From Pseudomonadota bacterium (GTDB lineage: Bacteria > Pseudomonadota > Gammaproteobacteria > JAIEPX01), in NCBI GenBank assembly GCA_029777855.1, contig JAKORL010000170.1, forward strand, positions 1,169 to 65,168: 64,000 nt of DNA, written 5' to 3'. The position numbers and the translations under genes were made by a program. The notes beneath the pieces were generated by a model that saw only the letters and a program-made list of their open reading frames with translations, was not told the origin of the DNA and did no database searches. Each line of letters begins with the position of its first letter. Position 1 is the stretch's first letter. Below, piece after piece: positions 2,589 through 19,893 of the stretch.

Positions 2589-5156
2589 TTATTGTTCAGG
2601 ATTCGATCCCTCATCACTAAGGTTCGCCTCATCATTCACTTCCTCAACGCGGCGCATGGCTACCAGCTTTTCCTCTTCACTCAGACTGATGAGTCTAACA
2701 CCTTGGGTATTTCGACCCACCAGAGAAATTTCTTCGACGCGTGTGCGCACTATCGTACCTTGATCAGTAATCAACAGAATTTCATGTTGATCAGTCACGG
2801 CTTCAGCACCCACTACCTCACCGTTGCGTTCATTGACAATAATTCCGATCACGCCTTGTCCACCGCGTCCGATTCGGCGGAATTCACTCATTTCGGTTCG
2901 TTTACCGTAACCATTAGCGGTCGCCAAAAGAATGGCTTCATTGTCTTTAGCAGCCAATAATGAAATTACACGTTGCCCAGATTTGAGACGAATACCTCGC
3001 ACACCCGCGGCAGTACGCCCCATAGGTCGAACCAAGGTTTCTTCAAATCGAATCACTTTACCGGTGTTAGCAACCAACATAATGTCTTGTTTACCATCGG
3101 TAATAATGACATCCACTAGATCATCGCCTTCGCGAATATCCAGCGCAATTAAGCCGCTATTACGTGGGCGTGAAAATTGTGACAAAGACACTTTTTTCAC
3201 TGTACCATTCGCTGTAGCCATAAAGACGTAATGCCCTTCATCGAATTCGCTTATTGGCAATATGGCACTGATGCACTCACCTTCACTTAAAGGCAACAAA
3301 TTAACCACTGGACGACCTTTAGCCGCACGGCTTGCTTGAGGAATCCGATAAGCTTTCAACCAGAATAATTTTCCTTTATTCGAGAAGCACAAGAGCGTGT
3401 CATGCGCATTAGCAACCAATAAATGCTCGATATAATCTTCTTCTTTCATAGACGTTGAGGATTTGCCCTTACCACCGCGATGTTGAGCTTGATACGTTTC
3501 CAGTGGCTGAGTCTTGGCATAGCCCTCACTCGAAATTGTGACAACTAAAGTATCATTAGGAATCAGATCTTCCATTGATAATTCTTCTTCATTATCAATA
3601 ATTTCTGTTCGCCGTTCATCGCCAAATTGAGTTTTAATTTCTAATAATTCATTTCGAATGACTTGCATCAATCGATCGGCATCTGACAATATCTCAAGTA
3701 AATCTTTGATGAGATCCAATAACTGCTTGTATTCACTAAGAATTTTATCTTTCTCAAGCCCCGTTAAACGATGGAGTCTTAAATCTAAAATGGCTTGGGC
3801 TTGGTCGGGTGATAAATGATAACCTTCGGGTTTAAGCCCATATTCTTCTGGTAAATCTTCGGGTCTAGAGGCATCACTGCCTGCACGCTCGAGCATGTCT
3901 AAAACAGCCCCAGGCCGCCACACAGAAGCCACTAAACGCTCTTTGGCTTCTTGAGGTGTTTTTGATGATTTAATCATTGCAATGACTTCATCAATATTCG
4001 CCAGCGCAATCCCCAAACCTTCTAATACATGGGCACGTTCACGTGCTTTTCGTAAATCAAAAATGGTTCGGCGAGTCACGACTTCACGTCGATGACGAAT
4101 AAAAGCTTCCAGCAGATGCTTCAGCCCCATACAACGCGGACGACCCTGGTCCAGAGCGACCATATTAATACCAAAAACGACTTGTAGCTGCGTCTGAGAA
4201 TAAAGATTATTCAGTACCACTTCAGCATTTTCACCACGTCGTAGTTCAATATAAATCCGCATACCTTCTTTATCGGATTCATCACGCAATGCCGTAATGC
4301 CTTCAAGACGTTTTTCTTTCACTAATTCTGCAATTTTCTCAATCAATCGTGCTTTATTCACTTGGTAAGGTAATTCAGTGACGATAATCGCTTGTTTCTC
4401 ACCTACATCTTCAAAATTTGTTTTACCGCGGATCAATACCCGTCCACGACCGGTTTTATAGGCTTCTACAATACCCGCTCGGCCATTGATGATACCTGAG
4501 GTTGGAAAATCAGGCCCAGGGATTACTTGCATGAGATCACTGAGATCACATTCAGGGTTATCAATAATGGTAATACATCCATCGATGACTTCGCTGAGAT
4601 TGTGAGGAGGAATATTCGTTGCCATACCGACCGCGATACCCGATGAGCCATTCACTAAAAGATTAGGTACTTGGGTGGGTAAGACAGATGGCATGTGTTC
4701 AGAGCCATCATAATTGGGAACAAAATCGACTGTTTCTTTTTCGAGGTCAGCCAATAAAGAATGAGCAATTTTAGACATACGGATTTCGGTATATCGCATC
4801 GCAGCAGGCGCATCGCCATCCACAGAACCGAAGTTTCCTTGTCCGTCAACCAGCATGTACCGCAACGAGAATGGTTGGGCCATTCGAACAATGGTATCGT
4901 ACACAGCCGTATCACCATGAGGGTGGTATTTACCAATCACATCACCCACGATACGAGCGGATTTTTTATAGGGTTTATTCCAATCGTTCTTGAGCTCATT
5001 CATCGCAAACAAAACGCGCCTATGCACAGGTTTCAAACCATCGCGCACATCAGGCAATGCACGCCCTACGATTACGCTCATTGCGTAATCTAGATACGAT
5101 TGCTGAAGCTCGTCTTCTATATTGACGGCCACTATTTCCTTAGCGTGATCATGCAT
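2589..5156 (-). CDS. gyrA: DNA gyrase subunit A
   Basis: 855 aa. Contains [25 protein letters not shown], the [21 protein letters not shown], and a C-terminal beta-pinwheel region. Confidence 0.97.
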
Positions 5157-5256
5157 AAATAACCTTATCTATAGCTGCAGTTACAAAAGCGAAATTGTAA
5201 CACTTTTCCAATCTATTGGCTATTAGATTTGGGTCGCAAATTAATATCGCCAGACC

Positions 5257-8200
5257 TCATTTCTTGGTCTGGGCAGAGGTTGTATTATCCACTTCCCATA
5301 CCTCAAACAACTTTGGTTTCTGCTCAAACAATACACATGACAACACTGAACGCGGCGTAGACAAGAGCCTGGCAGCAGACACTCGTTCGGGTAGTGCTGC
5401 TAACGGTTGACACGCCACAACAGGCAGTGATTTAGCTCCGCTTGAAAATAAGCTAAGTTTTTGTTCAGAAAGATTGATAGGTCTTTCAACTTTACGCCAA
5501 CCACACTCTTCTTCAAAATCTTGGATTGAATGAATACTCATCAAACTTCGTGTGACCTGCACTTTTTGTATGACGCTAATTAATTGGACAAAGTCACTTT
5601 TATCCCATCGATATTTATAGACGATTTGTTGCAAGGTCTTAGGGTCTTTAATATACCCATTTAATAATGCACAGAATGCCATCATTCGCTTTAACCTCAT
5701 GTCTGATAACAGTCTTTCTTTAATTTGAGGCGACATATTATGACTAGAACATAAGATGTGCTCATCAAAACCAACTAGACAATAACATGATTTTGTATCC
5801 GCATGATCCCGAATTTTAGCAGCATAAAATTGTATCCCTGCCGTCGTTAATGCAGCAAATCTTATTTTATTATTTTCCAAATTACATTGAACGATGACCG
5901 CTTGAATGGGTTTAAGATATTTCACCGTTGCAGTAAATTCACTAACATCTTCGAACGGACAGAAATTTTGAACGTTTAAAAATAACTTAGGCATCTTGAA
6001 AGAACATTTTTCAAAACGAATTCTCTTAAAATCGCGTTCATCATTGAGAAAGATTGCCTGGAGTGTGTTCGCACGAGTATAAGTTTCCATCCTAAAACGA
6101 AAATCTTTTCCTACTTGTACCAAAGATTTAATACGTTGTTCTTGCTCAACTTCTCTTTCATCTTCAATTTGAGCCGTTTGTTCCTGGCAAACCTGAGCGT
6201 TTAACTCAGCACCATGCGGTTCACGCATGAGCTCAATCAATTGTTCTGTTTCATTGATTATGCGAGTAATCCGGCAAACTTGAGTAGGCGTAAAATCTGT
6301 AGCCCAGTCTAATCCAAAACGTTGACAAAGATGATCTCTATAGCGTGCCAAAACAGCTTGCGGATTATCATAAATACACTCAACTTCATATAATACATAC
6401 GGATCTATAGGATATCGTTGTTGAAGTTGCGTTTTATGTTGGCTATAGGGCACTGTGCCTTGATCAATTAATTTCCAAATTTTCCCTGCTATGATTTCAT
6501 AAATACCTTGATACGCTCGATTAATCACTTTTGTATTTAACTCATCGGCGAAATTTTCAATAAACCACTCGCTTATCTTAATAAGATCAAAATGCTCTAC
6601 CCCTGGATTAATTTGATTGTAGAGAGATTTGAAAATAATCCAAATCAGGGCTTCGCCATCTTGTTCTAAGAATGGTCTAAATCGCATAATAGCTTGAATG
6701 GTCACGGGCAAAGATTGGCCCTTACCAATCGTGATACCAGAAACATCGTTATAGGGCCTCTTAATATCAGTCCCCGTTGTTTTTATCAAATCTAAAAATA
6801 AAAACAATAACACTTTTTTAGGATCCAATCCCTGACGTTTAATCGCAGTAATAACATTGGTTCCTGGTATGGTAACGTTATTTAATTTTTTTAATTTAGA
6901 CACTAATACCATCAAATTATTTTGGAAACACTGTACTGTCTTTCGTTCATCACCCTCATCAAAAGACGCTAAGATAGCATTAGCAACTCGGGTTGGTGTC
7001 AAATCAGAAAATAATGCACCCCGCTCGAATAACGCACACAATTTTAAAAATAAATCGGGATACTTCGTTTTAATTTGATTGAACATTTCTTTAGGATCAT
7101 GAGTCATCTCTAGCATGCAATAAGCGCTATTTTTGGGATCTAACATTTTCTGAACAACTTCCGCTTCAAAGAATGCCGATTCGAAATAATGCTCTTTATC
7201 AAGGTACACTGGATAAACTTCAGGCAAGCCTGGTGTTGCAGTAAAAATAATACTTCGCGTAAATCCTGCTTGGAAATCGGCCGCAGTGGATTCAACGCGA
7301 AATTCTGGTGTCCTAATCTGTCTAAATGCATAGGTAAATAAGAAAAACTTCTGCATATCAGGCGAAAATCGGACTGTAGGGTCGTCAGATAGCGCTTTCT
7401 TAGACTCAGCTGATAAGTTATCCAGAGATATAAAACGATAGTCTTTAGGAAGTTTTGCATTGAATGATCTTTCAGCTTTAGTGATTTTCTTTGTATTCCA
7501 ACGCCTTTCCTTTAAATGTGCAGACTCAAACAGTCGGATGATTTCCAAAATATAGTCTGTAGGCTGTTCCACAGGTACGCCTGTCATCGCATAAAGCTCA
7601 ATCGTTAATGCCGCAACAAGAATCTGATCACCAAAATGTGCAGTAACATCTTTTCCATCATGCTTAGGCCCTACGGAAAGATCTTTAAAATGCACTGATT
7701 TACCAAAGTCTTTTTGATATTGGAGTGTCAGAATATGCTTTAATAATGTTTGAATTAAGGTTCTGCCTAATACAATCAGACTTGCCAATTCTCGATTATT
7801 TTGACGATATTGCTTTAACCACTCCGGTTTTTTTCGATCTTCTTGAGTATAGTACGATTTAAGTTGCGAGCGATTAACCGACGCATAACATCTAAATTCA
7901 ACAACCCTTTGCACCAGCTCTTCTTTTAATACCACAAGCTCTTTTTCCGTAACCGCTTTTTTACCTTTTTCAATAATGCCTGCTATCTCAGCAATGTGTT
8001 TTGAGTTATCTGCAACACCTAATAGAATATCAAAAAAGTCTATCAACACTTGCAGTTGTTCTGCTGGAATGCTCTGCATTTGACCATAGGTTTTGATGCT
8101 TTGCTGAAGCGGATCACTTTGAATATGCCCTTCATCTTCGAGTTTGATGGCATGTTGTTTAAAATACTCTAATATTGCTAAGGCAGCTTTTGCAACTGGT

Positions 8201-11200
8201 TCATCATTCGTGTCGTAGGCAATGCGTTTGCTACTATTGAGAGCATGCCATGTGATAGGGGTTAGCATCAACGCTTTTTTATCTTTATGCCATGATTTAA
8301 TATCAACCAGTAATTGGGTTAATTCCTCGCTCGTCCATTTATGATTTAAATCTCTATCTATGATCTCAATAAGTTGTTGTAAAGTATTGCGCAAGATGGG
8401 GGGTAATTCGTGCAAGGAAATATGATGCAGTTCATTTGTATTAAAAATTATCGGCAAATAACCCTTTTGAGCAAACCTGAAAGTCAGTAGAGGTATGAGC
8501 AACCAAGTCTTTCCACCACCCGCTTTGAATTGAAGAAGAGCATGCTTTACTTCTTCGTCGTCGACTAATTCTCCTTCAATATATCGTATTAATATGTCTA
8601 AAGGCTCATACTGATCTTCTCTAATCCATTTTTTTGACATATATTCGTAAAATAGAAATTCAGGGTAATCCGAAATTTTGAAATGTCGTTTTTTATCCAA
8701 TGTTCTAGCTAATTCTTGTAGATGATAATTCGATAATTCGGAAAATGATTTTTTATCTTTGATAATTTCAAGCGCATCATCACACAAGTTAATTATTGAC
8801 TGCAATACGGCAAAATCGGATAACTTTTTCACAATCTCATCAAGATCATTTTGATTCAGAAATACATTGGCGTGAGCAATAATATTCATATCTTGTTTCA
8901 AATATGCTTCAAAAAGCAGCGAAATTGTCATTTCTGGCACCTGCTCTGCTTGTTGCAGGGCGATATGATATGCTCCCAAAGCTCTTTGATGATTATTAAA
9001 ACCTTGCTCAGCTTGTCCATCGATAAAAGGATTTTTCTTTGCTAATTGCAGTATGTTTTCTTGCAATAACCCAGACTCTTTTATTATATCTTCGCGCTTA
9101 AAAACTAGGGCTTCTCGCAGCTTTTCAATAGGCTTAGCTGAATCTTTGAGTGCATAAACCAGTCTTATTCTGGTTTTGTTTTGCTCATGCCCTCGCTCTA
9201 GCCTCTTAATACATTCTTGCTCTAATCGCTTTCGTCGATTTTCAGATGAAAATGGAAGATTGTCTATTATAGCAATAGGTTCTCTTTTAGGTTCTTCAAA
9301 ATACTCGCCTACAAAAGACTGTAGGGGATGCAGACTTGTTGAGGTCATTTTGTAGTCAACCAAAGAGAAAACGAAGGTCCGATTAGCAGGAAAAATTCCA
9401 GGCAGTGACTCTACAGTTTGTAATAACCCCTGTTTGATTGGGCTTCGAATAAGTGGTCCCGTCACTAAAATTCTCTCATCATATAGCTTTCGCATATGGG
9501 CATAGACAGCGATCATACATTCTCGGTTAGCTTTAAATTTCCCTCGAAACTGTTGAAAATGTGCTCGATTAAGAAGAATATAATTAATAATATTCACGTA
9601 CGTATTCTGAACTTGGGCATCGTTCAGTTTGTAAGTAAGAAGAATAAGTTTTAAACGCTTTTCAACCACTGGGTTAGTATCAAGGGCAAGCGTAAATAGC
9701 GCTAGAAAATTCATTTCTAAAAGGCATTCAGCCGTATTGATCGAGGGATGGTGAACGCGATCTTTATCTAAGTAAAACTGATCCAATTCTTTGTCTACCC
9801 AATCATAATAATGTCTGAGAGCAGGTTTAAGGGGAGGATTTGAACGACATTCTAGAACAGGATGTGCTTTCACCCACTCTTCAGCCGCTTTGTTATAGCC
9901 ACGAGATACACTAACACTGTCTTTGAGAAACCAAACACCCTCTTTTTCATCATCAAACCGATCCAGCTCAATACCAAATCGGACAATTTGCAGTCCTAAT
10001 GGTTTTTCACGATAACCCCAACTGCCTACGTTTTTCATATCTTTATTGTGCTGAATTTCCTTGAGCTCATGGATAATGTCACAATCTGCATCAGACAATA
10101 AAAGATAATGAGGTATTATGGTAATCCCTTCACGTCTTTCACTAAGGCTCAGTTTATAAAACTCAAATTGTTTAATCACGTGTCTGAGAAACGATTCTGA
10201 TCTGGTAAACTTATAATACGGTCTTTCGTCCCATTTATTATTGTGACGAAACATGCGAACTGCCACATGACAATCGAAGGCGGCACCCTTAGATGATAAA
10301 TCTCCCCGTGCTAACAACATCTCGATGATTCGACCTTGGAATTCTTGATTACTTTTATGATGCTTTGTTCGATTTAAACATTGCATCGCACGAGAATAAT
10401 CACCTAAACAACGATATATTATTGAAAGATATAAATCGTCGTCTACATCATCACCCTTGAGCTCATTATTTAGATCGAGATGATATTCAAAGCATTCACT
10501 TTTCAGCACTTCATTTCTGCTCAAGAATGGCGAACTATCAAGTGCTGAATTATGAGAACCAGGGGAAGCCAGCAATTTAAATGCGGGAAACAAATAACGT
10601 CGTTCAGCCTTATCATTCTCTAACACAACTAAACACGTCAATCCTTGCAAGCAGGGCAAGCTTTTTATTGGAGTCAAAAAATAACCAGGGTGGGTTTCGC
10701 AGTCTAATTGACCATCAACGTTCAAAAAACGTAGCCCTAATAAGCCCCAATTCATTTTTTGTATCACAATTTCTTTATCATTAGTACGTTGTGCACTCGC
10801 ACTAACCGAATTAGTCCCTACTGTATTATTTAGATAAACCATCCATTTTCTTTCAATATCTGACCTTGGACAGCCTACATCTAATAGTATATACCCATCT
10901 TCACTCCATACACCTTCTGCGTTTACGGATAATCGTAACCAACCTTGTGTGGGCGTGTAATGATACGCGGTTCCGTTATAGTCTGTAGATTCGACGAAAA
11001 TCTCATTTTCATCTTCTGTATTGACCCAGTAGCTATAAATAAAATCACGACTTGCTAACGTTTCGTTTCCGAAGGGGTTCGTCAATTTTTTATTAGAAAA
11101 GTACTCTTTTTCATTTGGATTAATGTCGTCATTCCCGGTTGCAAGTAGTTGAAATCGCATCCGCTGGACATTAATCGTAATGCCTCTAAATACTTTTACA

Positions 11201-14200
11201 CAACGCGTTAATTGATACGCATGGAATTCCCAGGAATAATCCGGAGCATATACAATGTTCAAATCTAGCTTATTTTCTTTATAACCCTTTCCGTCATACA
11301 GAAGAGAAATTTTTCGATTTGCGAGATTCAATTCTCTCCAAACTCTCCAATTATAGGCATAGATTTGTGTAACATCTTCTACTTGATTGTTGTTACTAAA
11401 AAGTGCGCCATCCCTTAAAGTAAGGGTAATTTGAGGATTGATTGATGAGAGAACCCCCTCTTTATAGCTCCATTCAGATTGAATATCCGTCTCTAGTGCG
11501 CTTTTAACAACAGAGTTTATGAAGCGATCTAATTCTGTCTGTTTTAAGGATACCATTAATTGATTGATGTGTGCGTAAAACAGAGGCCATGCTTTTATCA
11601 CGTGTAAATCTAATAAACTATGACCATCATATCCTTTTTGTCGATCTAATGAAGCAATGAGCTTTGCTGATAAAATTGCCCAAAGATCTTGCTGTGAAAA
11701 TTCATTAAAGTGCTGGTAAAAAAGCAAAAGTAAAGAAGCTACTCGGGTCTTGGTTTTTCTTGCTTTGTAATTTGAATCATAACTTTTCTTAGTATCGAGT
11801 AATTGTTGTAAAATTTCTCTTGTATCAATGATTTTTAATTGCGTTGAATCGAATCCATATAAAGCCCCACACAATTTAACATAACTCAATACTTCACTTT
11901 GAAGCTCAATTAAAAAAAGCAAAGCTTCGAGTTGTTCCTTAGTACCTTCTCCTTCTAGTCTATTGATATAATATTTGATACTCAAATCGAAGAATAGATT
12001 GAACAACGGAATAACAGCATCATGTTGATGACATAATGCGTAATCTAATTTATTAATCGAAAATAAAAGACTTCGTATTCTGCTCTGGACTCCGTTATAA
12101 ACAATTTTATCCACGTGATATTGGCACCACTCCAGTAACAGTGGAATCTGCATAGATCCTGCTGTTTCTATTTGCTTAAATGCCTCATCGAGTATCTCGA
12201 GATCACTCTCATTAATATCATATCTAGACCAAGCTCCTGATTCTTTATCAAAGCTTCCTGAAAATTCATGATGATAAGGTGTAAATTCTACTAGCCTAGG
12301 ATAAGTATAGGCATCATGCGTATTTTTTAATACTCGCAATTCTTCAAGCGGATAATAAATAGCGTTTTCAGCAAAATCACCGAATGCGCCACGCACAGCT
12401 CTAGATCTTGGAGCATGCTTCATTAATGTTGTTCCGACTGCGCTCCCGTTGAAATCGCGACGAACAGATTGTTCTAAGGCATTTTGAAGGTTGAGCTGTC
12501 TGTGATAGGCGGTATTTTCAATGAAATGTAGATCAGGCGTTGCATCAAAGCGAGCGTCTCTTTTCATATCATAACTACGATCACCACCTCTATAATGGAC
12601 GACACTCGATATCTTTAACAGATGAACAAAAGAATGCCCTAGAAAATTTTCTGAAGGGAATTCCACAGTTTTTGTCCTCTCACTAAAGATAGAACTGTTA
12701 TCATAATGAGGATTAGTAATTTCACACTTTCTTGTTAAGAATACGTTCATATAATATTCATTACTCAAAGAATAGATACTGCTTTTTACTGCACCATTAT
12801 CTTTGAACGCACTCAGAGCCTTAGATTTTACATCTTTCGTTAGAATATACCGAGACATCCACTCACAAGTAAAATCTTCTGAGTTAGGCCTGACACAGTT
12901 CGAAAACACAGGTTTCTTTCCTGTCATCCTACGCTGAAAATTCAGCAGAATTTGCTTCACTGAAAAATACACTGATGCTTCAGAAAATATTTTATCTGAC
13001 ACTACATCACTCAATCCCAGAACATACTCATGATTCAGATACATATTCGGAAGACGGTGTACTAATTGTGCACAGATATCATAAGCAATAAGAGCGATTT
13101 CTATGGGTTGACACCCAGGTAACTTATTATATCTATCTAAATGCTTAACGAGTTTATGAAAACCGTCCATCAAAAGTGGAATTTGATCCTGAGGTAGCTG
13201 ATCCCAAAACGGGTCTTGCGGAAGACCCGTCGTCGATGGCAAAGCTCTCATCATCTCGTATAGATAAATCATTGAATAAATTGAGTAATGCTTTTCCAAG
13301 ATCGCATTTGTATGATTAATATGTTCTATTACATTATGAGGTGTTAGCTTAATGGGCGAGAATTCAATATAATTTTCTTTATATTCACCCTCAGTAATGA
13401 TTGTTTTTCCACTCGCTTCAGCGGGTTGAGCTGTCTTTTTTTCAACTGTGCCATAGTCTCCTGTTAAGGGAGGTAGAGTATCAACAGCACAAACTTTAGA
13501 GGCCAAGATACTCTGTGCTTGATTAAAACCTTCTCGTATTTTCCCCACTATGTCCGTACAGAATTGTATCTCATCATCATTAATTAGGCTCTCGTAATGT
13601 TTTGACATTCGTACAAAAGATTCTCGAATCGCCCAATCAAACATTTTTGCAGGACAATTCCCTTGGTGATAGGCTTTATTCCCTTCAATCAGAGAAGCTA
13701 ATTTAAGAACAAACGTCACTCGCTTAGATTGGACTTCTGAACACTGAGCCACTGTTTTTAATGAATCTGAAATAATCAGCAATGAATTCGTAACAGGACA
13801 TGTGCCCGTTCGTTGTGGTGTTACAGAGTGGGCAGATTTATTATCGGTTGCCGATAGCGGTTCCCCACAAGTCATTAGCAAAGCATACAAATCTAATTTA
13901 TCATAAGGTCTAATATTTTTTTTATTACTAGAAAATTTAATTTCGTTTGACGTTCCGTAATCATTTCTTAGTCCAACGACTTTTTCAGTTTTATCGAAAG
14001 GTCTGCGATCAATTTTTAGGCGAATAATTGACTCCAAGAAGAATAGACCAAATTCAGATTGAAAATCAATACGAAATTCATCTGAGGAATAATTTCGCTT
14101 AACTTTGCCACTATTTTTTCCTTGATGCATGGGTTGATGAAATCCAATACCATCTCCTCGATCTAAAATACTACATGCAAATTTGCTGTCTTCTAAACGT

Positions 14201-14619
14201 CTTATTCGCACCACATCAAAATGAGCTTCCCCTTCATCGTTGCACCACCCTGCGGGTAAATAACAAATACCTCCAAGGAGATCTGAATGCTCCTTAATCA
14301 CAACGAGCACTTTTTCTAAATCGATGTTTATTCCATTATTCGACAGGAATGAAGTGAAAAGCGCATAAATTTGCAATGTAGACTTTATTGCATGTTGAGG
14401 AACTTGAAGTTGTTCGTGAGTAATATTAAAAGGGATAGGGTATGCCGCTTGATCTAAATGAATAAGTTCATTGATATATTGAAGGGCCTGTTCAGCCAGC
14501 ATACCTTCCCAAGAAGAATCCCGAATGGCACTGGCATCATGTACCATGGCAAAAGCGCTGTTATTATGGGCCATTCTAGGTTTTGCATTTAATAAATCTT
14601 CGATTTTTGTTTGTTTCAT
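5257..14619 (-). CDS. giant (3120 aa) orphan protein with central P-loop NTPase-like core; effector candidate
   Basis: Uninterrupted 9.4-kb ORF. ATG at 14619 is preceded by AGAGGAAA; the ORF-track start at 14724 is a TTG with no SD. Walker-A-like AGGGKT at 8506..8523, DEGH at 8125..8136, and IIFTATPG near 7229..7252. No other domain was recognised by eye. Confidence 0.8.
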   Translation of the reverse strand: MKQTKIEDLLNAKPRMAHNNSAFAMVHDASAIRDSSWEGMLAEQALQYINELIHLDQAAYPIPFNITHEQLQVPQHAIKSTLQIYALFTSFLSNNGINIDLEKVLVVIKEHSDLLGGICYLPAGWCNDEGEAHFDVVRIRRLEDSKFACSILDRGDGIGFHQPMHQGKNSGKVKRNYSSDEFRIDFQSEFGLFFLESIIRLKIDRRPFDKTEKVVGLRNDYGTSNEIKFSSNKKNIRPYDKLDLYALLMTCGEPLSATDNKSAHSVTPQRTGTCPVTNSLLIISDSLKTVAQCSEVQSKRVTFVLKLASLIEGNKAYHQGNCPAKMFDWAIRESFVRMSKHYESLINDDEIQFCTDIVGKIREGFNQAQSILASKVCAVDTLPPLTGDYGTVEKKTAQPAEASGKTIITEGEYKENYIEFSPIKLTPHNVIEHINHTNAILEKHYSIYSMIYLYEMMRALPSTTGLPQDPFWDQLPQDQIPLLMDGFHKLVKHLDRYNKLPGCQPIEIALIAYDICAQLVHRLPNMYLNHEYVLGLSDVVSDKIFSEASVYFSVKQILLNFQRRMTGKKPVFSNCVRPNSEDFTCEWMSRYILTKDVKSKALSAFKDNGAVKSSIYSLSNEYYMNVFLTRKCEITNPHYDNSSIFSERTKTVEFPSENFLGHSFVHLLKISSVVHYRGGDRSYDMKRDARFDATPDLHFIENTAYHRQLNLQNALEQSVRRDFNGSAVGTTLMKHAPRSRAVRGAFGDFAENAIYYPLEELRVLKNTHDAYTYPRLVEFTPYHHEFSGSFDKESGAWSRYDINESDLEILDEAFKQIETAGSMQIPLLLEWCQYHVDKIVYNGVQSRIRSLLFSINKLDYALCHQHDAVIPLFNLFFDLSIKYYINRLEGEGTKEQLEALLFLIELQSEVLSYVKLCGALYGFDSTQLKIIDTREILQQLLDTKKSYDSNYKARKTKTRVASLLLLFYQHFNEFSQQDLWAILSAKLIASLDRQKGYDGHSLLDLHVIKAWPLFYAHINQLMVSLKQTELDRFINSVVKSALETDIQSEWSYKEGVLSSINPQITLTLRDGALFSNNNQVEDVTQIYAYNWRVWRELNLANRKISLLYDGKGYKENKLDLNIVYAPDYSWEFHAYQLTRCVKVFRGITINVQRMRFQLLATGNDDINPNEKEYFSNKKLTNPFGNETLASRDFIYSYWVNTEDENEIFVESTDYNGTAYHYTPTQGWLRLSVNAEGVWSEDGYILLDVGCPRSDIERKWMVYLNNTVGTNSVSASAQRTNDKEIVIQKMNWGLLGLRFLNVDGQLDCETHPGYFLTPIKSLPCLQGLTCLVVLENDKAERRYLFPAFKLLASPGSHNSALDSSPFLSRNEVLKSECFEYHLDLNNELKGDDVDDDLYLSIIYRCLGDYSRAMQCLNRTKHHKSNQEFQGRIIEMLLARGDLSSKGAAFDCHVAVRMFRHNNKWDERPYYKFTRSESFLRHVIKQFEFYKLSLSERREGITIIPHYLLLSDADCDIIHELKEIQHNKDMKNVGSWGYREKPLGLQIVRFGIELDRFDDEKEGVWFLKDSVSVSRGYNKAAEEWVKAHPVLECRSNPPLKPALRHYYDWVDKELDQFYLDKDRVHHPSINTAECLLEMNFLALFTLALDTNPVVEKRLKLILLTYKLNDAQVQNTYVNIINYILLNRAHFQQFRGKFKANRECMIAVYAHMRKLYDERILVTGPLIRSPIKQGLLQTVESLPGIFPANRTFVFSLVDYKMTSTSLHPLQSFVGEYFEEPKREPIAIIDNLPFSSENRRKRLEQECIKRLERGHEQNKTRIRLVYALKDSAKPIEKLREALVFKREDIIKESGLLQENILQLAKKNPFIDGQAEQGFNNHQRALGAYHIALQQAEQVPEMTISLLFEAYLKQDMNIIAHANVFLNQNDLDEIVKKLSDFAVLQSIINLCDDALEIIKDKKSFSELSNYHLQELARTLDKKRHFKISDYPEFLFYEYMSKKWIREDQYEPLDILIRYIEGELVDDEEVKHALLQFKAGGGKTWLLIPLLTFRFAQKGYLPIIFNTNELHHISLHELPPILRNTLQQLIEIIDRDLNHKWTSEELTQLLVDIKSWHKDKKALMLTPITWHALNSSKRIAYDTNDEPVAKAALAILEYFKQHAIKLEDEGHIQSDPLQQSIKTYGQMQSIPAEQLQVLIDFFDILLGVADNSKHIAEIAGIIEKGKKAVTEKELVVLKEELVQRVVEFRCYASVNRSQLKSYYTQEDRKKPEWLKQYRQNNRELASLIVLGRTLIQTLLKHILTLQYQKDFGKSVHFKDLSVGPKHDGKDVTAHFGDQILVAALTIELYAMTGVPVEQPTDYILEIIRLFESAHLKERRWNTKKITKAERSFNAKLPKDYRFISLDNLSAESKKALSDDPTVRFSPDMQKFFLFTYAFRQIRTPEFRVESTAADFQAGFTRSIIFTATPGLPEVYPVYLDKEHYFESAFFEAEVVQKMLDPKNSAYCMLEMTHDPKEMFNQIKTKYPDLFLKLCALFERGALFSDLTPTRVANAILASFDEGDERKTVQCFQNNLMVLVSKLKKLNNVTIPGTNVITAIKRQGLDPKKVLLFLFLDLIKTTGTDIKRPYNDVSGITIGKGQSLPVTIQAIMRFRPFLEQDGEALIWIIFKSLYNQINPGVEHFDLIKISEWFIENFADELNTKVINRAYQGIYEIIAGKIWKLIDQGTVPYSQHKTQLQQRYPIDPYVLYEVECIYDNPQAVLARYRDHLCQRFGLDWATDFTPTQVCRITRIINETEQLIELMREPHGAELNAQVCQEQTAQIEDEREVEQEQRIKSLVQVGKDFRFRMETYTRANTLQAIFLNDERDFKRIRFEKCSFKMPKLFLNVQNFCPFEDVSEFTATVKYLKPIQAVIVQCNLENNKIRFAALTTAGIQFYAAKIRDHADTKSCYCLVGFDEHILCSSHNMSPQIKERLLSDMRLKRMMAFCALLNGYIKDPKTLQQIVYKYRWDKSDFVQLISVIQKVQVTRSLMSIHSIQDFEEECGWRKVERPINLSEQKLSLFSSGAKSLPVVACQPLAALPERVSAARLLSTPRSVLSCVLFEQKPKLFEVWEVDNTTSAQTKK

Positions 14620-14804
14620 CACATTTCCTCTTGTAGCTTTCTGGTCACTATAGTCTCTATTACTGTCCCAAATCGTATCACAGTAAGATAAGGAATCACA
14701 GCTCCGAGACGCCACGCTTCCCAAATAGGCCCGAATATCTTGCGCTTTCTGATCAATTATGATATAAAATCGACGCGCTCAGAAGTAAAGAGATACACTG
14801 TGTC

Positions 14805-17800
14805 ATGATAGAACCAAAAGCAGAGAAATTAATACAATTCGAAGGGACTTTTAGCATCGAAAATCCTTCTGCTGATAATTTGGTGAAATTGACATTCAAA
14901 GACCAAGCAAGGGCAAGCGCCTTCTACAATGCTGTGGTTCAATTAATGCCTTTCATAAACACGGAATATCCGAAGCTTGTTGAGAAGGTAATTCTGCTGA
15001 CTCAAGAGCAATATTTTTTCTACCAACGATGCGCCACTGCAGAAACTGGCAAACTCACTACAGCCTATTTAGGTGAGAGTTTTTTAAAAACTTTGCGTTC
15101 CGATGAATTTGATTTTAGTCTCGCGTTTATATTAGGCATTATTCCCGGCCCCCAAAACAGGCGGCATCTCCAAAATTTGCGTCCAAAAAATCGAGAACCC
15201 GTCACAATTACTCCACAAGGTAAAATCGTACTAAGACAAGAAAAACAATCCACGCACACTTCAAAAGAAAAAGAAGGTTTTTCACAGATTCAGTCTTGTA
15301 CTCACATTGATGAAGAAGCACGCAGCGCAGCTTTTGGTCATAGTAAGGATCGGCAACTCTTTGGCATTATGACTCATATCGATGATACGTTGATTAGTCG
15401 CATGCTAATCAATGATTTTGGGACTGTTAGTCGATTATTCGATTTCTCCGACATTGAAAGCGCCACGACAAGTTCTAGCCATCAAAAATATTCAAATGGC
15501 TCTATTTTTCCGCCGTCTCTATTTAAATCATTCAAAGAAAATAATTTAAAATTTAGAAAAAATTACGGCGGCACTAATGAAGTACTAGCAAGATTACGCT
15601 TTAATCCTTATCGCTCTCTTATCGCAATTAATACTGATACTTTAGAAGCACGTTTATTAGCCAATTATTTTGCACAGGAATTGCTGCAATACTTTGCTGT
15701 TTATGCAGAAAGCCAATGCATGACATTGAATCCCCATTATAAAATACCTATTATTTTTTATGTTCCGAAATATTCACATGGATTCAGAAACTCGATCATG
15801 TCTCCTGCCCATGAATTGAAATTCTACACCTCTGCAATGCTTCAAAAAGATCGTGCTGAATCAGCATCAATATTCAAAAATAAAACACGTAGAATGGATT
15901 ATTATATACGTCAAAACTACGAATTTTTATTAGGCATGGGCGAAATAACGCCTGAAATTTTATTAGAACCCGTTGATACGATTCCACTCGCACTTGCAAT
16001 GATAAAGAATAGCAAGGTTCGTATGTTAACTCGTTTACTAGGGATAACAACACAACCTAACCTCAGCGATCAAGTATTTAATGCACTTTTAACAGAAGGC
16101 TGGATTACACAAAATGATACCATAATCGCTAAAATTATTATGGCAGAAGCCTTTGATATCGCAGATAAAATCATCCTCGCAACAATGACTATAAAAACCG
16201 CATTAACCTTGGAAAATACATTATTAATAGATCACATAGTAAGTTATGGAAACCCTCGTCATTTCAACTTTATGGGTCTTAATCAGATGTTGATCCATGC
16301 AGCCAAAAAGCGCTCATGGTTTTCAATTACACTTTGCCTTAAAGAATTCAGCCACATGGCCCATACTTTTCCACGAGAAATCATCACTGAAGCCATTAAA
16401 TCAAAGGAAGATGAAGCGATAACATTACTCAACAAGTATTACCCAAAGAGCGAAATTATAACCGACTTCGGCTATCTACTGCTCAATGCATTACAAGATC
16501 AAAAATTAAAATCGGCCAAATTCTTGTTGCAAGCTGGCGCCAAAGCAAACTGGCGTAATCAGCAAACTGAAATCAAATATCAACTATTATCTACTCTCTA
16601 TTATGCTGTTAAATTTGGTTTCAACGAACTTCTTCCTGCGCTAATTGAACATGAAAAAGAATGTCAAAACGAATTCTACCAAGCTCGACTTACATTGGCA
16701 CTTGATCTTGCCCACTGTCTACAGAACTACGAAGCAGTAACATTATTCAGTACTATTTGTAAACCAGTGCTAATAGACCCTGATAATATCCATTCCAGCA
16801 TTTGCAAGCTGATCTTAGAAGCTCTAGTTATCAGAGATAGTCAATTCGCTGAATTACGATTAATACGATATTGCCAAGAATACAACTTACTTCCAAACAC
16901 CAACTCTAACGTTTTAGATGGGATGGAAATTCTACAAGATCATTTCCCTCCAATTATCGAAAAAGAGGAAAAAATTATTTTCGCTAAAAAAATAACGCAT
17001 GAATTTAGAAGCCTTCTTTTTGATAATGAAGTCGATTTCGATAAATTTATTTCGCTACCAAATGAATCTACTTCTTTTGCAAAGAGTCTTATTGATATAC
17101 ATTATCAAAAAGCCGATATATTATATAAGGCGACCATCAGAACAGGGGATGTCAAATTCGAATTTGACACGCTCATAAAAATGAAACAATGGAAAACATT
17201 AAAACTGTTTACTCGATATAAGACCGATGCTGAAGGTAAAGTAGCTTATGGCTATGTATTACTCAAGGCTCTCGAATATCAGAAAACTGAGTTGGCAAAA
17301 TTATCATTAAAATCTGGCGCCAAAGCAAACTGGCGCAATCAGAAAACTAAACACAAATATCAGTTATTATCTACTCTATATTATGGAGTTAAATTTGGTT
17401 TCAACGAACTTCTTCCTGCGCTAATTGAACATGAAAAAGAATGTCAAAACGAATTTTACCATGCTCGAATTAGATTGGCACTTGATCTTGCTTACTGTGT
17501 AAATAATCACGTTGCTATAACATTATTAAGTACTATTTGCACCCCAGCCCTGATAGACCCTGACAATATCCATTCAAGCATTTGCAAGCTGGTGTTAGAA
17601 GCTTTAGCTATCAGAGATAGGGAAATCACTGAATTACGATTAATACAATATTGTCGCGAATACAATTTACTTCCAAACAACAACTCTAACATTCTAGATG
17701 GGATGGAAATTCTACAAGATCATTTCCCTCCGATTGTCGACAAACAGGCTAGATTTATTTTGGCTAAAATAATAACACAACAATATACAAGACCTCCTGT

Positions 17801-19796
17801 TAAAAATGATGACGATTGCTATGAATTTATTTTTATACAAGATGTATCTGCTTCACTTAGAGAGAATCTTCTTAATGAACAGTATCAAAAAGCTGATTTA
17901 CTATATAAGTTGACCATGACACCAAAAGATGTCCAGAATGAGCTGCACAAACTCATAAAAATGAATGATTGGAAAACATTAGAATTGTTTACTCGATATA
18001 AGGCCGATCCTGAAGATAAAGTAGCCTACGGTTATGTATTGCTCAAGGCTCTCGAAAATCAGAAACCCCAATTAGCAAAATTATATTTAAGAGCAGGCGC
18101 CAAATCAACATGGCGAAATTGGATGGCAAACGACGCCCACCCACTAATCTCTGCACTACTTCACGCTGTTAACCATGATTATCATGATCTCCTTCCCCAG
18201 CTAATAGAACTTGAAAAAAATACACCCGACGATCGCACACAAGCTAAACTCAGCCTAGCATTGGATCTTGCCTATGTACTCGGAAACCAAGAAGCCATTA
18301 CCTTACTGGAACAAAACAATGACACAGCGTCAACCATTGACTCTACGAATGTTGATAAAAGTATTTGTTCGCAGGTGTTTGAAGCTTTCTCGGTAGGATA
18401 TAGACAAGTCGGTGAACTGCGTCTACTTCGATATTGCCATGCCCACGCCTTAATGAGTAAAGAAAATCTTCGTGTTATTGATGGGTTAAATAGTCTTAAA
18501 ATTCATTTTCTCGATGCTCTTAAATTGCATACCCAAAACGATATCATAAGAATTCTAACAATCTTATTCGAAATACTAATAGCCGATGTAGATCCTGAGT
18601 TACTGAAATCATCACTTAATCTATTAGAATTTCATTACGATGAAGATTCTCTAGAGCCACTAAAAAAAGAAATTTATCGCGTAATTATGAAAAATCTGAC
18701 TACTGATAATTTTAACACAGTCAATGAGATCATTTCCCATCATGAATCAACAAGAAATAAGAGTTTTAAGCGAACCTGGACTGAAGTTATCCAAGAGGAA
18801 TTTTCTAAAAAAATATCTGCGTCTAAATTCAGTCAAACTCCAGACCCTATAGCTACATTACTCTATAAACTCGGAATACAGATATCCTCCCACTCATATT
18901 TTGAAGCTTTTGAGTATGCAGTAGCTACCAACAATGAAGAACTGAGCATGCTCTTAATAAATCACTCTTTAAGTGGCGACAAAGTAAAAGAAAGATCTCT
19001 CATTGATGCAATGAAGCACCATAATACACATCTCATACTATCTCTGATAACCAACACTAAATTCATCGTCACCTTAGACCTCATATCAGCCTCCATTAAA
19101 AACGATCTTTTTTTGGTATTATTATCATTACTCAAAAAAAGTGAGTTACAAAAAGATACAAATAAAAAGGAGAATTGGACTCTCTACGCTAACGTGTCAT
19201 ATACATCCCCAAAAGATCACCACTGGACCCTCTACTCCATATGGGCATACTGCACACTCACTGATGATAAGAGACGGGCTAGTTGTAAATTATTGACTCG
19301 AATATTTGGTGCCTCTAAGGTTATGCATTTTACGTTAGTGAATGTGTTGGTCATATTATCCTCGAAGTATATCACCTCAGACTCCCCTTCAATCTGGTCA
19401 AGATTAGATCAAGTCCTGGCTAGAGTATCTTCACAAGTATTGAGTTTCACAGCGTTTGAGAAGAAGCATCAATTCAAGTACGATCCAAAAGACAGTGATA
19501 CGCATAAAAAAATACTCACTTTACTCAATGAGTATTTTAGTCACGCTGATGCCATGCCAACGGAAGCTGTCATTATTAGAACCTTTAAAATAATACAAGA
19601 TCATTTTAAATTACTGTATGATAATTCTTTTCCTAATAAATTCTTCAAAATTAAGCCTCTTACACATCGTGATTATAATAAGGAAATTTATAACACTCTC
19701 AGGGATGTCGATGAGGCAATAAAGAACAGTAATACGCCTGATTTAGACCCCATTGATCAGAGCTTAGATGACAAAATGGTTTGTAACAGGCAATAA
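14805..19796 (+). CDS. 1663-aa ankyrin-like repeat protein with three 260-aa tandem units; effector candidate
   Basis: Long ORF divergent from the giant gene. The units contain LLxAGAKANWRN...STLYYAVKFGFNELLPALIEH, matching the ankyrin consensus (LL.aGA.vN ... TpLh.Av..g). The N- and C-terminal ~550 aa are orphan. Confidence 0.75.
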   Translation: MIEPKAEKLIQFEGTFSIENPSADNLVKLTFKDQARASAFYNAVVQLMPFINTEYPKLVEKVILLTQEQYFFYQRCATAETGKLTTAYLGESFLKTLRSDEFDFSLAFILGIIPGPQNRRHLQNLRPKNREPVTITPQGKIVLRQEKQSTHTSKEKEGFSQIQSCTHIDEEARSAAFGHSKDRQLFGIMTHIDDTLISRMLINDFGTVSRLFDFSDIESATTSSSHQKYSNGSIFPPSLFKSFKENNLKFRKNYGGTNEVLARLRFNPYRSLIAINTDTLEARLLANYFAQELLQYFAVYAESQCMTLNPHYKIPIIFYVPKYSHGFRNSIMSPAHELKFYTSAMLQKDRAESASIFKNKTRRMDYYIRQNYEFLLGMGEITPEILLEPVDTIPLALAMIKNSKVRMLTRLLGITTQPNLSDQVFNALLTEGWITQNDTIIAKIIMAEAFDIADKIILATMTIKTALTLENTLLIDHIVSYGNPRHFNFMGLNQMLIHAAKKRSWFSITLCLKEFSHMAHTFPREIITEAIKSKEDEAITLLNKYYPKSEIITDFGYLLLNALQDQKLKSAKFLLQAGAKANWRNQQTEIKYQLLSTLYYAVKFGFNELLPALIEHEKECQNEFYQARLTLALDLAHCLQNYEAVTLFSTICKPVLIDPDNIHSSICKLILEALVIRDSQFAELRLIRYCQEYNLLPNTNSNVLDGMEILQDHFPPIIEKEEKIIFAKKITHEFRSLLFDNEVDFDKFISLPNESTSFAKSLIDIHYQKADILYKATIRTGDVKFEFDTLIKMKQWKTLKLFTRYKTDAEGKVAYGYVLLKALEYQKTELAKLSLKSGAKANWRNQKTKHKYQLLSTLYYGVKFGFNELLPALIEHEKECQNEFYHARIRLALDLAYCVNNHVAITLLSTICTPALIDPDNIHSSICKLVLEALAIRDREITELRLIQYCREYNLLPNNNSNILDGMEILQDHFPPIVDKQARFILAKIITQQYTRPPVKNDDDCYEFIFIQDVSASLRENLLNEQYQKADLLYKLTMTPKDVQNELHKLIKMNDWKTLELFTRYKADPEDKVAYGYVLLKALENQKPQLAKLYLRAGAKSTWRNWMANDAHPLISALLHAVNHDYHDLLPQLIELEKNTPDDRTQAKLSLALDLAYVLGNQEAITLLEQNNDTASTIDSTNVDKSICSQVFEAFSVGYRQVGELRLLRYCHAHALMSKENLRVIDGLNSLKIHFLDALKLHTQNDIIRILTILFEILIADVDPELLKSSLNLLEFHYDEDSLEPLKKEIYRVIMKNLTTDNFNTVNEIISHHESTRNKSFKRTWTEVIQEEFSKKISASKFSQTPDPIATLLYKLGIQISSHSYFEAFEYAVATNNEELSMLLINHSLSGDKVKERSLIDAMKHHNTHLILSLITNTKFIVTLDLISASIKNDLFLVLLSLLKKSELQKDTNKKENWTLYANVSYTSPKDHHWTLYSIWAYCTLTDDKRRASCKLLTRIFGASKVMHFTLVNVLVILSSKYITSDSPSIWSRLDQVLARVSSQVLSFTAFEKKHQFKYDPKDSDTHKKILTLLNEYFSHADAMPTEAVIIRTFKIIQDHFKLLYDNSFPNKFFKIKPLTHRDYNKEIYNTLRDVDEAIKNSNTPDLDPIDQSLDDKMVCNRQ
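16470..18560 (+). repeat. in-frame tandem repeat, period exactly 780 bp, about 2.7 units
   Basis: GGCTAT/GGCTAT/GGTTAT unit landmarks at 16470, 17250 and 18030. Units 1 and 2 are nearly identical over long stretches (for example 16611-16680 vs 17391-17460, with 1 mismatch seen). Unit 3 is diverged. Confidence 0.85.
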
Positions 19797-19805
19797 ATTA
19801 CAGTA

Positions 19806-19875
19806 AAGGTGTCAGATCTAAGATTGATATATTCTCAAAAACTTGAGAATATATCAATCTTAGATCTGACACCTT
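19806..19875. repeat. palindromic MITE-like element, short form (perfect 33-bp arms, 4-nt loop)
   Basis: AAGGTGTCAGATCTAAGATTGATATATTCTCAA-AAAC-TTGAGAATATATCAATCTTAGATCTGACACCTT. It lies between the ankyrin gene and the mtaD-like gene. Confidence 0.9.
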
Positions 19876-19893
19876 AGCTCCAAGGACCTTGCA

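Follow-up and report, generated by a model that had tools for sequence, protein, structure and literature searches.

The closest described relatives of the gene considered here are the proteins that carry DUF3638 and DUF3645, two domains that mark thousands of giant eukaryotic genes and that Pfam describes as eukaryotic. The mechanism of these proteins was still called undefined in a 2025 paper (PMC12615304), and in the literature that we searched DUF3638 is always eukaryotic and of unknown function, with no description of bacterial members, of the N-terminal domain presented below, or of a core resembling superfamily 2 (SF2) motors and SecA. In this work we analyze a stretch of 64,000 nucleotides (the window) of contig JAKORL010000170.1 (assembly GCA_029777855.1), and in particular a giant open reading frame (ORF) on its minus strand at 5257..14619, whose product of 3120 amino acids (aa) we call the giant. 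An uncultured gammaproteobacterium of low guanine-cytosine (GC) content carries the giant ORF as a functional gene, and sequence profiles place its product in the superfamily of DUF3638/DUF3645 giant proteins, within an extensive bacterial branch. The superfamily itself is known but uncharacterised, and what goes beyond the searched literature is the bacterial branch, its N-terminal domain and the SF2/SecA-like nature of its core. Nucleotide coordinates refer to the window unless a relative's contig is named, residue numbers refer to the giant, and all features of the giant lie on the minus strand.

Results

Profile Matches to Eukaryotic Giants

The only Pfam match of the giant is PF12340 (DUF3638), which covers residues 1979-2187 at profile positions 3-203 of 225 (E=2.2e-6) and reaches 27.6 bits, below the cutoff of 31; the same family is matched by all four close relatives (4/4, best E=2.4e-10). 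PF12359 (DUF3645) and PF20255 (DUF6606) have no Pfam match in the window protein, and NCBIfam gives no match for the giant. When a profile of four bacterial homologues is used among 5.8 billion proteins, it finds fungal giants with PF12340, PF12359 and PF20255, namely Mycena capillaripes B0H19DRAFT_1113174 (3076 aa, E=8.6e-15) and Pseudocyphellaria aurata MMC07_002117 (3225 aa, E=8.3e-9). About 750 residues of each fungal giant are collinear with the bacterial profile in hmmsearch (148-162 bits), from before Walker A to past motif VI, and the core identity to these two proteins is 15-16%. A first-pass annotation of this DNA, made from the letters alone, had suggested a DUF3638/DUF3645 core from a handful of motifs; with both Pfam profiles run and the fungal alignment in hand, the relation stands at the level of profiles, while PF12340 stays below its cutoff and PF12359 is not matched.

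The layout of the proteins agrees with this relation. DUF3638 occupies residues 2003-2224 of the 3076 aa in the fungal protein P0006, where DUF3645 is a 33-residue motif at 2339-2371, and the core of the window protein occupies residues 1921-2720 of 3120; the similarity in size to eukaryotic counterparts that the first-pass annotation had pointed out is thus borne out, with about 3000 aa and a core near residue 2000 in both. Another relative, P0011 (3717 aa, from JGI), has the eukaryote-type Walker A LNMGEGKTS, both DUF3638 and DUF3645, and a protein kinase at 3431-3692, and it matches the bacterial profile also at model positions 1292-1561 (collinear, independent E-value 1.2e-8), so that the resemblance reaches past the core. 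We considered and dropped the idea that the N-terminal domain of the bacterial proteins is the fungal DUF6606, since shallow and deep HHalign comparisons (probability 0.1%) and hmmsearch gave no signal; the string GTC in one fungal N-terminus is missing from the other fungal sequence and was taken as chance.

The ATPase Core

The region equivalent to DUF3638 plus DUF3645 (residues 1921-2720, 6460..8859) is, to judge from profiles, conservation, AlphaFold2 and Foldseek, a complete SF2-type two-RecA ATPase. The SF2 motif set (I, II, III, V and VI) is complete and 86-100% conserved, as counted over 97 full-length core sequences, and every motif is present in the window protein. Ahead of Walker A lies WIREDQYEPL (1998-2007, 8599..8628), whose R2000 and Q2003 (the latter 98% conserved) make up a Q-motif-like element that aligns with LRPYQ of MDA5, PriA and RadD. 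Motif I, or Walker A, reads AGGGKT (2033-2038, 8506..8523), with G2036 and K2037 at 100% and G2034 also near-invariant, and motif II, or Walker B, reads DEGH (2162-2165, 8125..8136), with D2162 at 98% and E2163 at 100%, at the end of predicted strand 2157-2162. Motif III, IIFTATPG (2457-2464, 7228..7251; T2462 94%), comes after predicted strand 2455-2460, and it is followed by motif V, KTTGTD (2613-2618, 6766..6783; G2616 98%, D2618 86%), and by motif VI, QAIMRFR (2642-2648, 6676..6696), which would supply the arginine fingers and in which Q2642, R2646 and R2648 are at 100%.

AlphaFold2 modeled residues 1959-2770 from an 18-sequence alignment with a mean predicted local distance difference test score (pLDDT) of 85.9 and a predicted template modeling score (pTM) of 0.81. 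The model runs from a first RecA domain (RecA1) with an insertion holding the DUF3645 segment, through a second RecA domain (RecA2), to a 41-residue helix (2679-2719, 6463..6585; helix 721-761 of the model). The gap of 300 residues between motifs II and III arises because a domain is inserted in RecA1, namely a mostly helical one of about 250 residues (2184-2435, 7315..8070; model residues 226-477). The DUF3645-equivalent segment within it (about 2303-2336, 7612..7713) was aligned to fungal DUF3645 and is conserved at G2306 (92%), P2318 (96%) and F2329 (86%).

A Foldseek search of the core model against the PDB returned 28 matches at E<=1e-3, all of them SF2-type motors. SecA is the best of these (1tf5, E=9.7e-9; 3jv2, 6itc and SecA2, 1e-7 to 1e-5), with about 850-890 aligned columns and a TM score of about 0.4, and it is followed by CasDinG, DinG, XPD, LGP2/MDA5, RIG-I, UvrB and Rad54. 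The PPXD of SecA would sit at the same topological point as the RecA1 insertion, and the 41-residue helix, to judge from the SecA fold match, appears to resemble the SecA scaffold helix. At the level of sequence, the core profile gives sub-threshold matches only to PDB sequences, with nine of the top ten being helicases aligned at RxxQ...GxGKT (MDA5 at E=0.017); the weak sequence-profile matches of the core are to MDA5, PriA, RadD, PcrA and XPD, and no Pfam helicase family matches the giant. The core has no SecA sequence signal by HHalign (probability 0.7%) or by hmmsearch (-0.4 bits with filters off), and these null sequence profiles rule out sequence homology to SecA or membership of its family. 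The SecA likeness of the modeled core is accordingly one of architecture only, without family membership.

The motifs WIREDQYEPL, AGGGKT, DEGH and IIFTATPG lie where the first-pass annotation had placed them, with spacings of about 31, 125 and 299 residues that agree with its figures, and the Foldseek comparison that it had proposed leads to SF2-type motors with SecA first. Its remark that the third spacing is not canonical for SF2 does not hold, as the gap is the RecA1 insertion and the core does have motifs III, V and VI, nor are the recognisable motifs confined to about residues 2000-2460: motifs V and VI lie at 2613-2648, and the N-terminal domain and the middle module described next lie well ahead of the core.

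A Putative Thiol-Dependent N-Terminal Domain

The first 2000 residues, reported in the first-pass annotation as holding no motif, contain both a conserved His/Cys domain and a module resembling tetratricopeptide repeats (TPR). The former (residues 1-380, 13480..14619), an alpha/beta domain in the AlphaFold2 model, looks like a putative cysteine-dependent enzyme of no known Pfam family. An alignment of the first relatives already had invariant positions around 130-160 and 269-274, and conservation was counted over 131 family members. His133 (codon 14221..14223), the candidate general base, belongs to a GGH/GEAH motif, is 99% conserved and is on predicted strand 132-141. It is followed by LDRGDGIGFH (152-161, 14137..14166), a turn with Asn/Asp153 (94%), Gly155 (99%), Gly157 (96%) and His161 (93%), and, after about 110 residues that include a disordered insert, by QRTGTC (269-274, 13798..13815), with Gln269 (85%), Gly272 (98%) and the candidate nucleophile Cys274 (99%), which opens predicted helix 274-290 and is replaced by Ser in one family member. 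Y245 (98%) and E350 (86%) are further conserved positions. The model of residues 1-620 has a mean pLDDT of 71.9, with values of 80-94 over 1-205 and 240-375. In the papain-like geometry the thiol Cys stands at the N-terminus of a helix, the general-base His stands on a strand and an upstream Gln forms the oxyanion hole; the residue order His before Cys is common to clan CE, PPPDE/DeSI and permuted NlpC/P60 enzymes. The N-terminal domain is found in other architectures as well (P0042, P0138, P0115 and P0046), and no Pfam domains were found in those proteins.

In a fold search the 620-residue N-terminal model also matches N-terminal pieces of DUF3638 proteins from giant viruses of the Klosneuvirinae (E=1e-9 to 5e-4), with matches in Harvfovirus (A0A3G5A476), Fadolivirus (A0A7D3V923), Hokovirus (A0A1V0SH35 and A0A1V0SG42), Hyperionvirus and Yasminevirus. 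Two of the viral matches are named DUF3638, and UniProt gives some of them the name "ubiquitinyl hydrolase 1", an automatic label for which we found no experimental basis. Scans of IMG/VR with the bacterial pattern and with the eukaryote-type pattern gave no relatives.

Middle and C-Terminal Regions

Along 106 giants, conservation is found at residues 1-380, in weaker peaks at 441-560 and 801-880, at 1281-1480 and at 1921-2720, and it continues at a moderate level to about residue 3000. The middle module at 1281-1480 (10180..10779) is a beta-rich segment followed by the TPR-like repeat, and it is collinear in P0011. The repeat itself (about residues 1385-1440, 10300..10467) begins DDLYLSIIYRCLGDYSRAMQCL, and a profile of 26 sequences matches a consensus TPR protein (E=1.6e-7) as well as TTC7B (9e-4); Pfam TPR_2 is matched by 8 of the 26 members. 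Beyond the core lie the moderately conserved C-terminal region (2721-3000, 5620..6459) and a tail (3001-3120, 5257..5619, with the stop codon at 5257-5259) that is lineage-specific, with no conservation across the 106 giants.

Integrity of the Gene

Counted from its first TTG, the minus-strand ORF spans 5257..14724 and 3155 codons with no interruption. The ATG at 14619 is the likely start and is preceded by a ribosome-binding region read from the sequence (GAGGAA and a 6-nt spacer, 14620..14633), so that the complete coding sequence of 3120 aa plus stop codon is 5257..14619. An intact copy (P0001), 95% identical, is present on an independent Logan assembly contig (L002), which has in common with the window the gene order of an ankyrin-like 1663-aa gene, the giant, gyrA and an aminotransferase. 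Between the two copies the ratio of nonsynonymous to synonymous substitution rates (dN/dS, Nei-Gojobori) is 0.15 for the gene as a whole, with segment values of 0.19 in the N-terminal part, 0.16 and 0.15 in the two middle parts, 0.09 in the core and 0.14 in the C-terminal segment, which is still under purifying selection. The catalytic-type residues of the motor and of the N-terminal domain are all intact in the window protein, and no hydrophobic stretch suitable for a signal peptide or a transmembrane segment was found in its 3120 aa. The single uninterrupted ORF of 9.4 kb seen in the first pass is confirmed by the frame, by the ATG with its Shine-Dalgarno sequence and by the independent assembly.

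Size and Distribution of the Bacterial Family

An exhaustive HMMER search with a profile of residues 1-620 against 1.84 billion cluster representatives gave 1600 family members at E<=1e-3 (representatives at 50% clustering), of which 1032 reach E<=1e-10 and 221 reach E<=1e-30. Among the 150 top-ranked of the 1600 matches, the majority are 2900-4260 aa long, and the set that we analyzed has 109 proteins with a length of 2500 aa or more, 108 of which have both the N-terminal domain and the core. The earlier impression that the family is rare in bacteria came from word-indexed searches with 3-11 relatives, and was shown by the exhaustive search to be a limit of the index. Identity among bacterial members is 16-35%. 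The named carriers, all of them metagenome-assembled genomes, are a Legionella sp., a Parachlamydiaceae bacterium, two Gammaproteobacteria besides the window host, a Pseudomonadota bacterium and one unclassified bacterium.

All 14 of the gene neighborhoods inspected are bacterial and mutually different, with no conserved partner gene among them, and the neighbors of the relatives include HEAT, NACHT-pentapeptide, ankyrin, U-box-ankyrin and TPR proteins. GC content is 36-44% at all loci; the window as a whole stands at 39.7% and the gene of the giant at 37.2%. Ankyrin repeats are fused N-terminal to the His/Cys domain in P0005 (3075 aa; L008, 448..9675) and are encoded directly downstream of another relative, P0026. 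Two loci hold a further copy: on L004 a second DUF3638 protein of 1477 aa (15118..19551) lies two genes downstream and ends near the contig end, and on L012 a 2895-aa copy (5180..13864) is followed by a second copy in overlapping ORFs (13896..18584, 1563 aa, and 18425..22552, 1376 aa), possibly split by a frameshift. Toxin-antitoxin modules lie beside distant relatives (Xre-RES at 20874..24289 of L015 and HigB-HTH at 4387..5013 of L016), with a phage-type integrase nearby in L015. Because the bacterial proteins have their own N-terminal domain, 1600 representatives, deep divergence and low identity to the fungal cores, the sequence comparisons point to an old, large bacterial radiation and not to a recent eukaryotic import.

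Other Genes of the Window

The window holds the genes of a bacterial chromosome, among them gyrA, tsaD, ispG, methylcitrate-cycle genes, minCD, acyl-CoA dehydrogenase and UDP-glucose dehydrogenase. Its gyrA product shares a 90% cluster with a DNA gyrase subunit A recorded from a metagenome-assembled Gammaproteobacteria genome. Divergent from the giant, and adjoining it in L002 too, is the 1663-aa ORF (14805..19796, plus strand), with a weak Ank_2 match (E=5.8e-5), a weak PADLOC match to PDC-M72A (E=2e-6) and a dN/dS of 0.32, above that of its neighbors. On the other side, gyrA (2589..5156, minus strand) shares 82-85% nucleotide identity with its L002 counterpart (dS 0.91) and forms a divergent patch between flanks that are closer, namely the giant and ankyrin-like genes at 93-98% (dS 0.13-0.17) and the aminotransferase at 91-92% (dS 0.34). 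This suggests that one of the two lineages acquired a foreign gyrA allele through recombination, and the breakpoint would lie near 4500-5200. A recent exchange of the block of giant plus ankyrin-like gene, which the difference in dS (0.17 vs. 0.91 for gyrA) had brought to mind, was dropped, as the sliding identity profile shows gyrA as the divergent patch.

Farther away, a 327-aa protein (32252..33235, minus strand) has a full Ras-family GTPase domain (PF00071, E=1.3e-34) plus a Roc match; its gene is eukaryote-like and of a kind found in Legionella-like intracellular bacteria. A small protein encoded at 36811..37332 (plus strand) has a CAP (cysteine-rich secretory protein/SCP) domain (E=7e-23), and we count its gene, like that of the 1663-aa ankyrin-like protein, among the eukaryote-like ones. 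Five ORFs of 349-1461 aa have no Pfam match (26796..31181 and 51908..52957 on the plus strand; 21214..23562, 58387..60528 and 37681..38781 on the minus strand) and are candidate orphan or effector-like genes; the two of 1461 aa and 782 aa are also without a PADLOC match. Two minus-strand ORFs at 40247..40954 and 41063..42031 resemble one ABC-F ATPase gene in two halves, with ABC_tran and ABC_tran_Xtn in the upstream ORF and the end of ABC_tran (profile positions 73-137) and ABC_tran_CTD in the downstream one, which could reflect a frameshift, a pseudogene or an assembly error.

Discussion

A Proposed Motor Coupled to Thiol Chemistry

The reading that we favor is that the giant is an ATP-driven motor coupled to thiol-dependent chemistry of its N-terminal domain on a macromolecule, preferably a polypeptide, and that it is possibly a secreted effector directed at a host; we give this reading about an even chance of being right. 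In it the TPR module and the RecA1 insertion would assist the motor in gripping or threading its macromolecular substrate, and the N-terminal domain would act, coupled to the motor, as a thiol-dependent hydrolase or transferase with peptidase, isopeptidase or acyl-transferase chemistry. A polypeptide would be the favored substrate because of the SecA-like architecture together with the TPR module. More weakly, the substrate may be a protein of a protist host and the giant a secreted effector, because Legionella and Parachlamydiaceae are among the carriers, structural relatives occur in giant viruses, ankyrin repeats are fused or adjacent, and the genes stand alone in variable contexts. Hints of host association in the neighbors and in the window are the Ank, U-box, TPR, HEAT and NACHT domains, the Ras GTPase and the CAP-domain gene.

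Several observations weigh against this reading. The C-terminal tails show no family-wide Glu enrichment of the kind expected of a Dot/Icm-like E-block (by a crude test), no secretion-system gene is found within the window, and secreted substrates seldom have a length such as the 3120 aa of the giant. The resemblance of the modeled core to SecA is structural only, with nucleic-acid motors also among the significant fold matches, and the toxin-antitoxin and integrase neighbors are features that one would expect in a mobile or defence island. The 1600 family members are for the most part Logan-assembly singletons without a taxonomic label. For the N-terminal domain, a 32-sequence profile gave spurious matches only against Pfam and PDB sequences (FtsH at E=0.16), and Foldseek of the 620-residue model against the PDB gave a best E of 0.83, which is helical-repeat noise, in a search that is blind to circular permutation and that a permuted fold could escape. 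A relation to the permuted NlpC/P60 proteins YaeF and YiiX was tried by HHalign and dropped at a probability below 1%, the order of the motifs alone being alike.

Alternative Readings

The motor could instead act on nucleic acid, as an SF2 helicase or translocase inside the bacterium, and in one version of this idea it would be an immune sensor-effector that senses foreign nucleic acid and triggers the N-terminal domain, modeled on RIG-I-like receptors or on large helicase-containing anti-phage systems. CasDinG, DinG, XPD, MDA5/LGP2, RIG-I, UvrB and Rad54 are indeed significant fold matches, and the weak profile matches to MDA5, PriA, RadD, PcrA and XPD lean the same way, as do the varied accessory domains on one motor (the bacterial N-terminal domain, DUF6606, the kinase of P0011 and the ankyrin repeats of P0005), the toxin-antitoxin modules beside relatives with an integrase near one, and the tandem paralogues on L004 and L012. 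However, SecA outranks all of the nucleic-acid motors, with an E-value roughly a thousandfold lower and a whole-length alignment, no nuclease or nucleic-acid-binding domain was recognised in the giant, PADLOC-DB gives no match for it at E<=0.01, the window neighborhood (gyrA and the ankyrin-like giant gene) is not a defence island, and the named hosts are intracellular bacteria rich in eukaryote-like genes; we regard a nucleic-acid motor as possible, with considerable doubt. A second alternative concerns the N-terminal domain only, and is for that reason compatible with either role of the motor: His133, His161, Cys274 and Glu350 may form a structural or catalytic metal site, with zinc in mind, instead of serving a thiol nucleophile, which would count against the chemistry that we favor. 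Two His, a Cys and a Glu are typical zinc ligands, and no cysteine-peptidase fold or family was detected, but the Cys at a helix N-terminus after Gly-Thr, the Gln five residues upstream, the His on a strand and the Asn/Asp make a papain-like layout, and the Ser in place of Cys in one member suits a nucleophile better than a metal ligand, so that a metal site seems quite unlikely.

Two further alternatives touch the gene itself and its origin. The source contig is a metagenome-assembled sequence of 65.9 kb, and the ORF might for that reason have arisen as a chimera or other assembly artefact, or it might be a pseudogene in decay. The gene is real and no artefact because an intact copy stands in identical gene order on an independent assembly and dN/dS is low (0.09-0.19) in five of five segments; in addition, more than 100 relatives of 2700-4260 aa have the same arrangement and the catalytic-type residues are all kept. 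The possibility of an artefact, raised in the first pass, is refuted by the independent copy and the purifying selection, and we find it practically inconceivable. A recent horizontal acquisition by a bacterium of a fungal or protist DUF3638/DUF3645 giant would account for the core homology, the similar length and core position, the middle module shared with a eukaryote-type member, the other eukaryote-like genes in the genome and the GC content of the gene relative to the window. Such an import is nevertheless very improbable: the identity to the two fungal cores is 15-16%, DUF6606 is replaced by a different N-terminal domain, that domain is the mark of 1600 representatives, with giants making up the majority of the 150 best matches, all inspected loci are bacterial, and the bacterial sequences are highly diverse, down to 16-20% identity. 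The suggestion in the first-pass annotation of a bacterial copy of a eukaryotic protein is not supported, for the same reasons, namely the low core identity, the missing DUF6606, the other N-terminal domain and the large bacterial family.

Broader Meaning

With the motor coupled to thiol chemistry as a starting point, a wider proposal can be put forward, in which the bacterial, viral and eukaryotic DUF3638/DUF3645 giants would be one ancient class of ATP-driven protein-handling machines, made of a SecA-like motor for polypeptides in place of a helicase, a TPR module that binds substrate, and catalytic heads that can be exchanged for one another. In the bacteria this head would represent a cysteine hydrolase or transferase of a new fold class, and the window protein would be a secreted effector of the "unfold-and-cut (or modify)" kind, exchanged among amoeba-associated bacteria, giant viruses and protist hosts. 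Taken as a whole this proposal is rather unlikely; if true, it would add a type of enzyme to those that process proteins at the expense of ATP.

Short of that, the analysis gives DUF3638/DUF3645 a structural identity, as a predicted complete SF2 motor with a SecA-like layout, and shows that the bacterial branch brings its own putative catalytic domain, equally uncharacterised. The family becomes testable, with intron-free bacterial genes and named residues in the N-terminal domain (C274 and H133) and in the motor (K2037 and E2163). Its distribution as found so far ties together amoeba-dwelling bacteria (Legionella and Parachlamydiaceae), giant viruses of amoebae, fungi and protists, and the family is for that reason well suited to the study of gene exchange in the amoeba "melting pot". 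A motor that acts on polypeptides would represent a protein-processing machine of a new, ATP-dependent kind, whereas one that senses nucleic acid would represent a giant immune sensor, also new, that different domains of life have in common.

Comparison with Known Systems

The N-terminal domain may be compared with thiol enzymes in which His precedes Cys, namely those of clan CE (Ulp1/SENP, YopJ and the bacterial CE deubiquitinases), PPPDE/DeSI, and the permuted NlpC/P60 proteins (LRAT/PLAAT and YaeF/YiiX). It is like them in the order His, Asn/Asp or His, Gln, Cys, and in the placement of the Cys at a helix N-terminus and of the His on a strand, and it differs from them in that no similarity of fold or profile was found (PDB, Pfam, and HHalign for YaeF/YiiX). 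With the Klosneuvirinae DUF3638 proteins the likeness is that of the predicted N-terminal fold, the two having been compared by fold alone.

The predicted core has in common with the SF2 nucleic-acid motors (DinG/XPD, CasDinG, RIG-I/MDA5/LGP2, UvrB, Rad54, PriA and RadD) the RecA1-RecA2 pair, motifs I-III, V and VI, and R-x-x-Q; on the other hand, their fold matches are weaker than that of SecA, and the iron-sulfur (Fe-S), C-terminal (CTD) and nucleic-acid-recognition domains of such motors are not recognised here. SecA is like the core in having two RecA domains, the first with a large insertion that follows motif II and the second with a long helix behind it, and its motif strings (GEGKT, DEVD, GxTGT and RGTD) resemble those of the core, whereas the insertion here is mostly helical with a DUF3645 motif and the motor is embedded in a 3120-aa protein.

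The eukaryotic giants with DUF3638, DUF3645 and DUF6606 differ from the bacterial ones at two places, with DUF6606 at the N-terminus of the fungal proteins where the His/Cys domain stands here, and with a Walker A of MG[EK]GK[ST] in the eukaryote-type proteins where AGGGKT stands here. They are like the bacterial giants in their length of about 3000 aa, in a core at about residue 2000 and in collinearity over motifs I-VI and the DUF3645 segment, and the eukaryote-type P0011 also shares their middle module.

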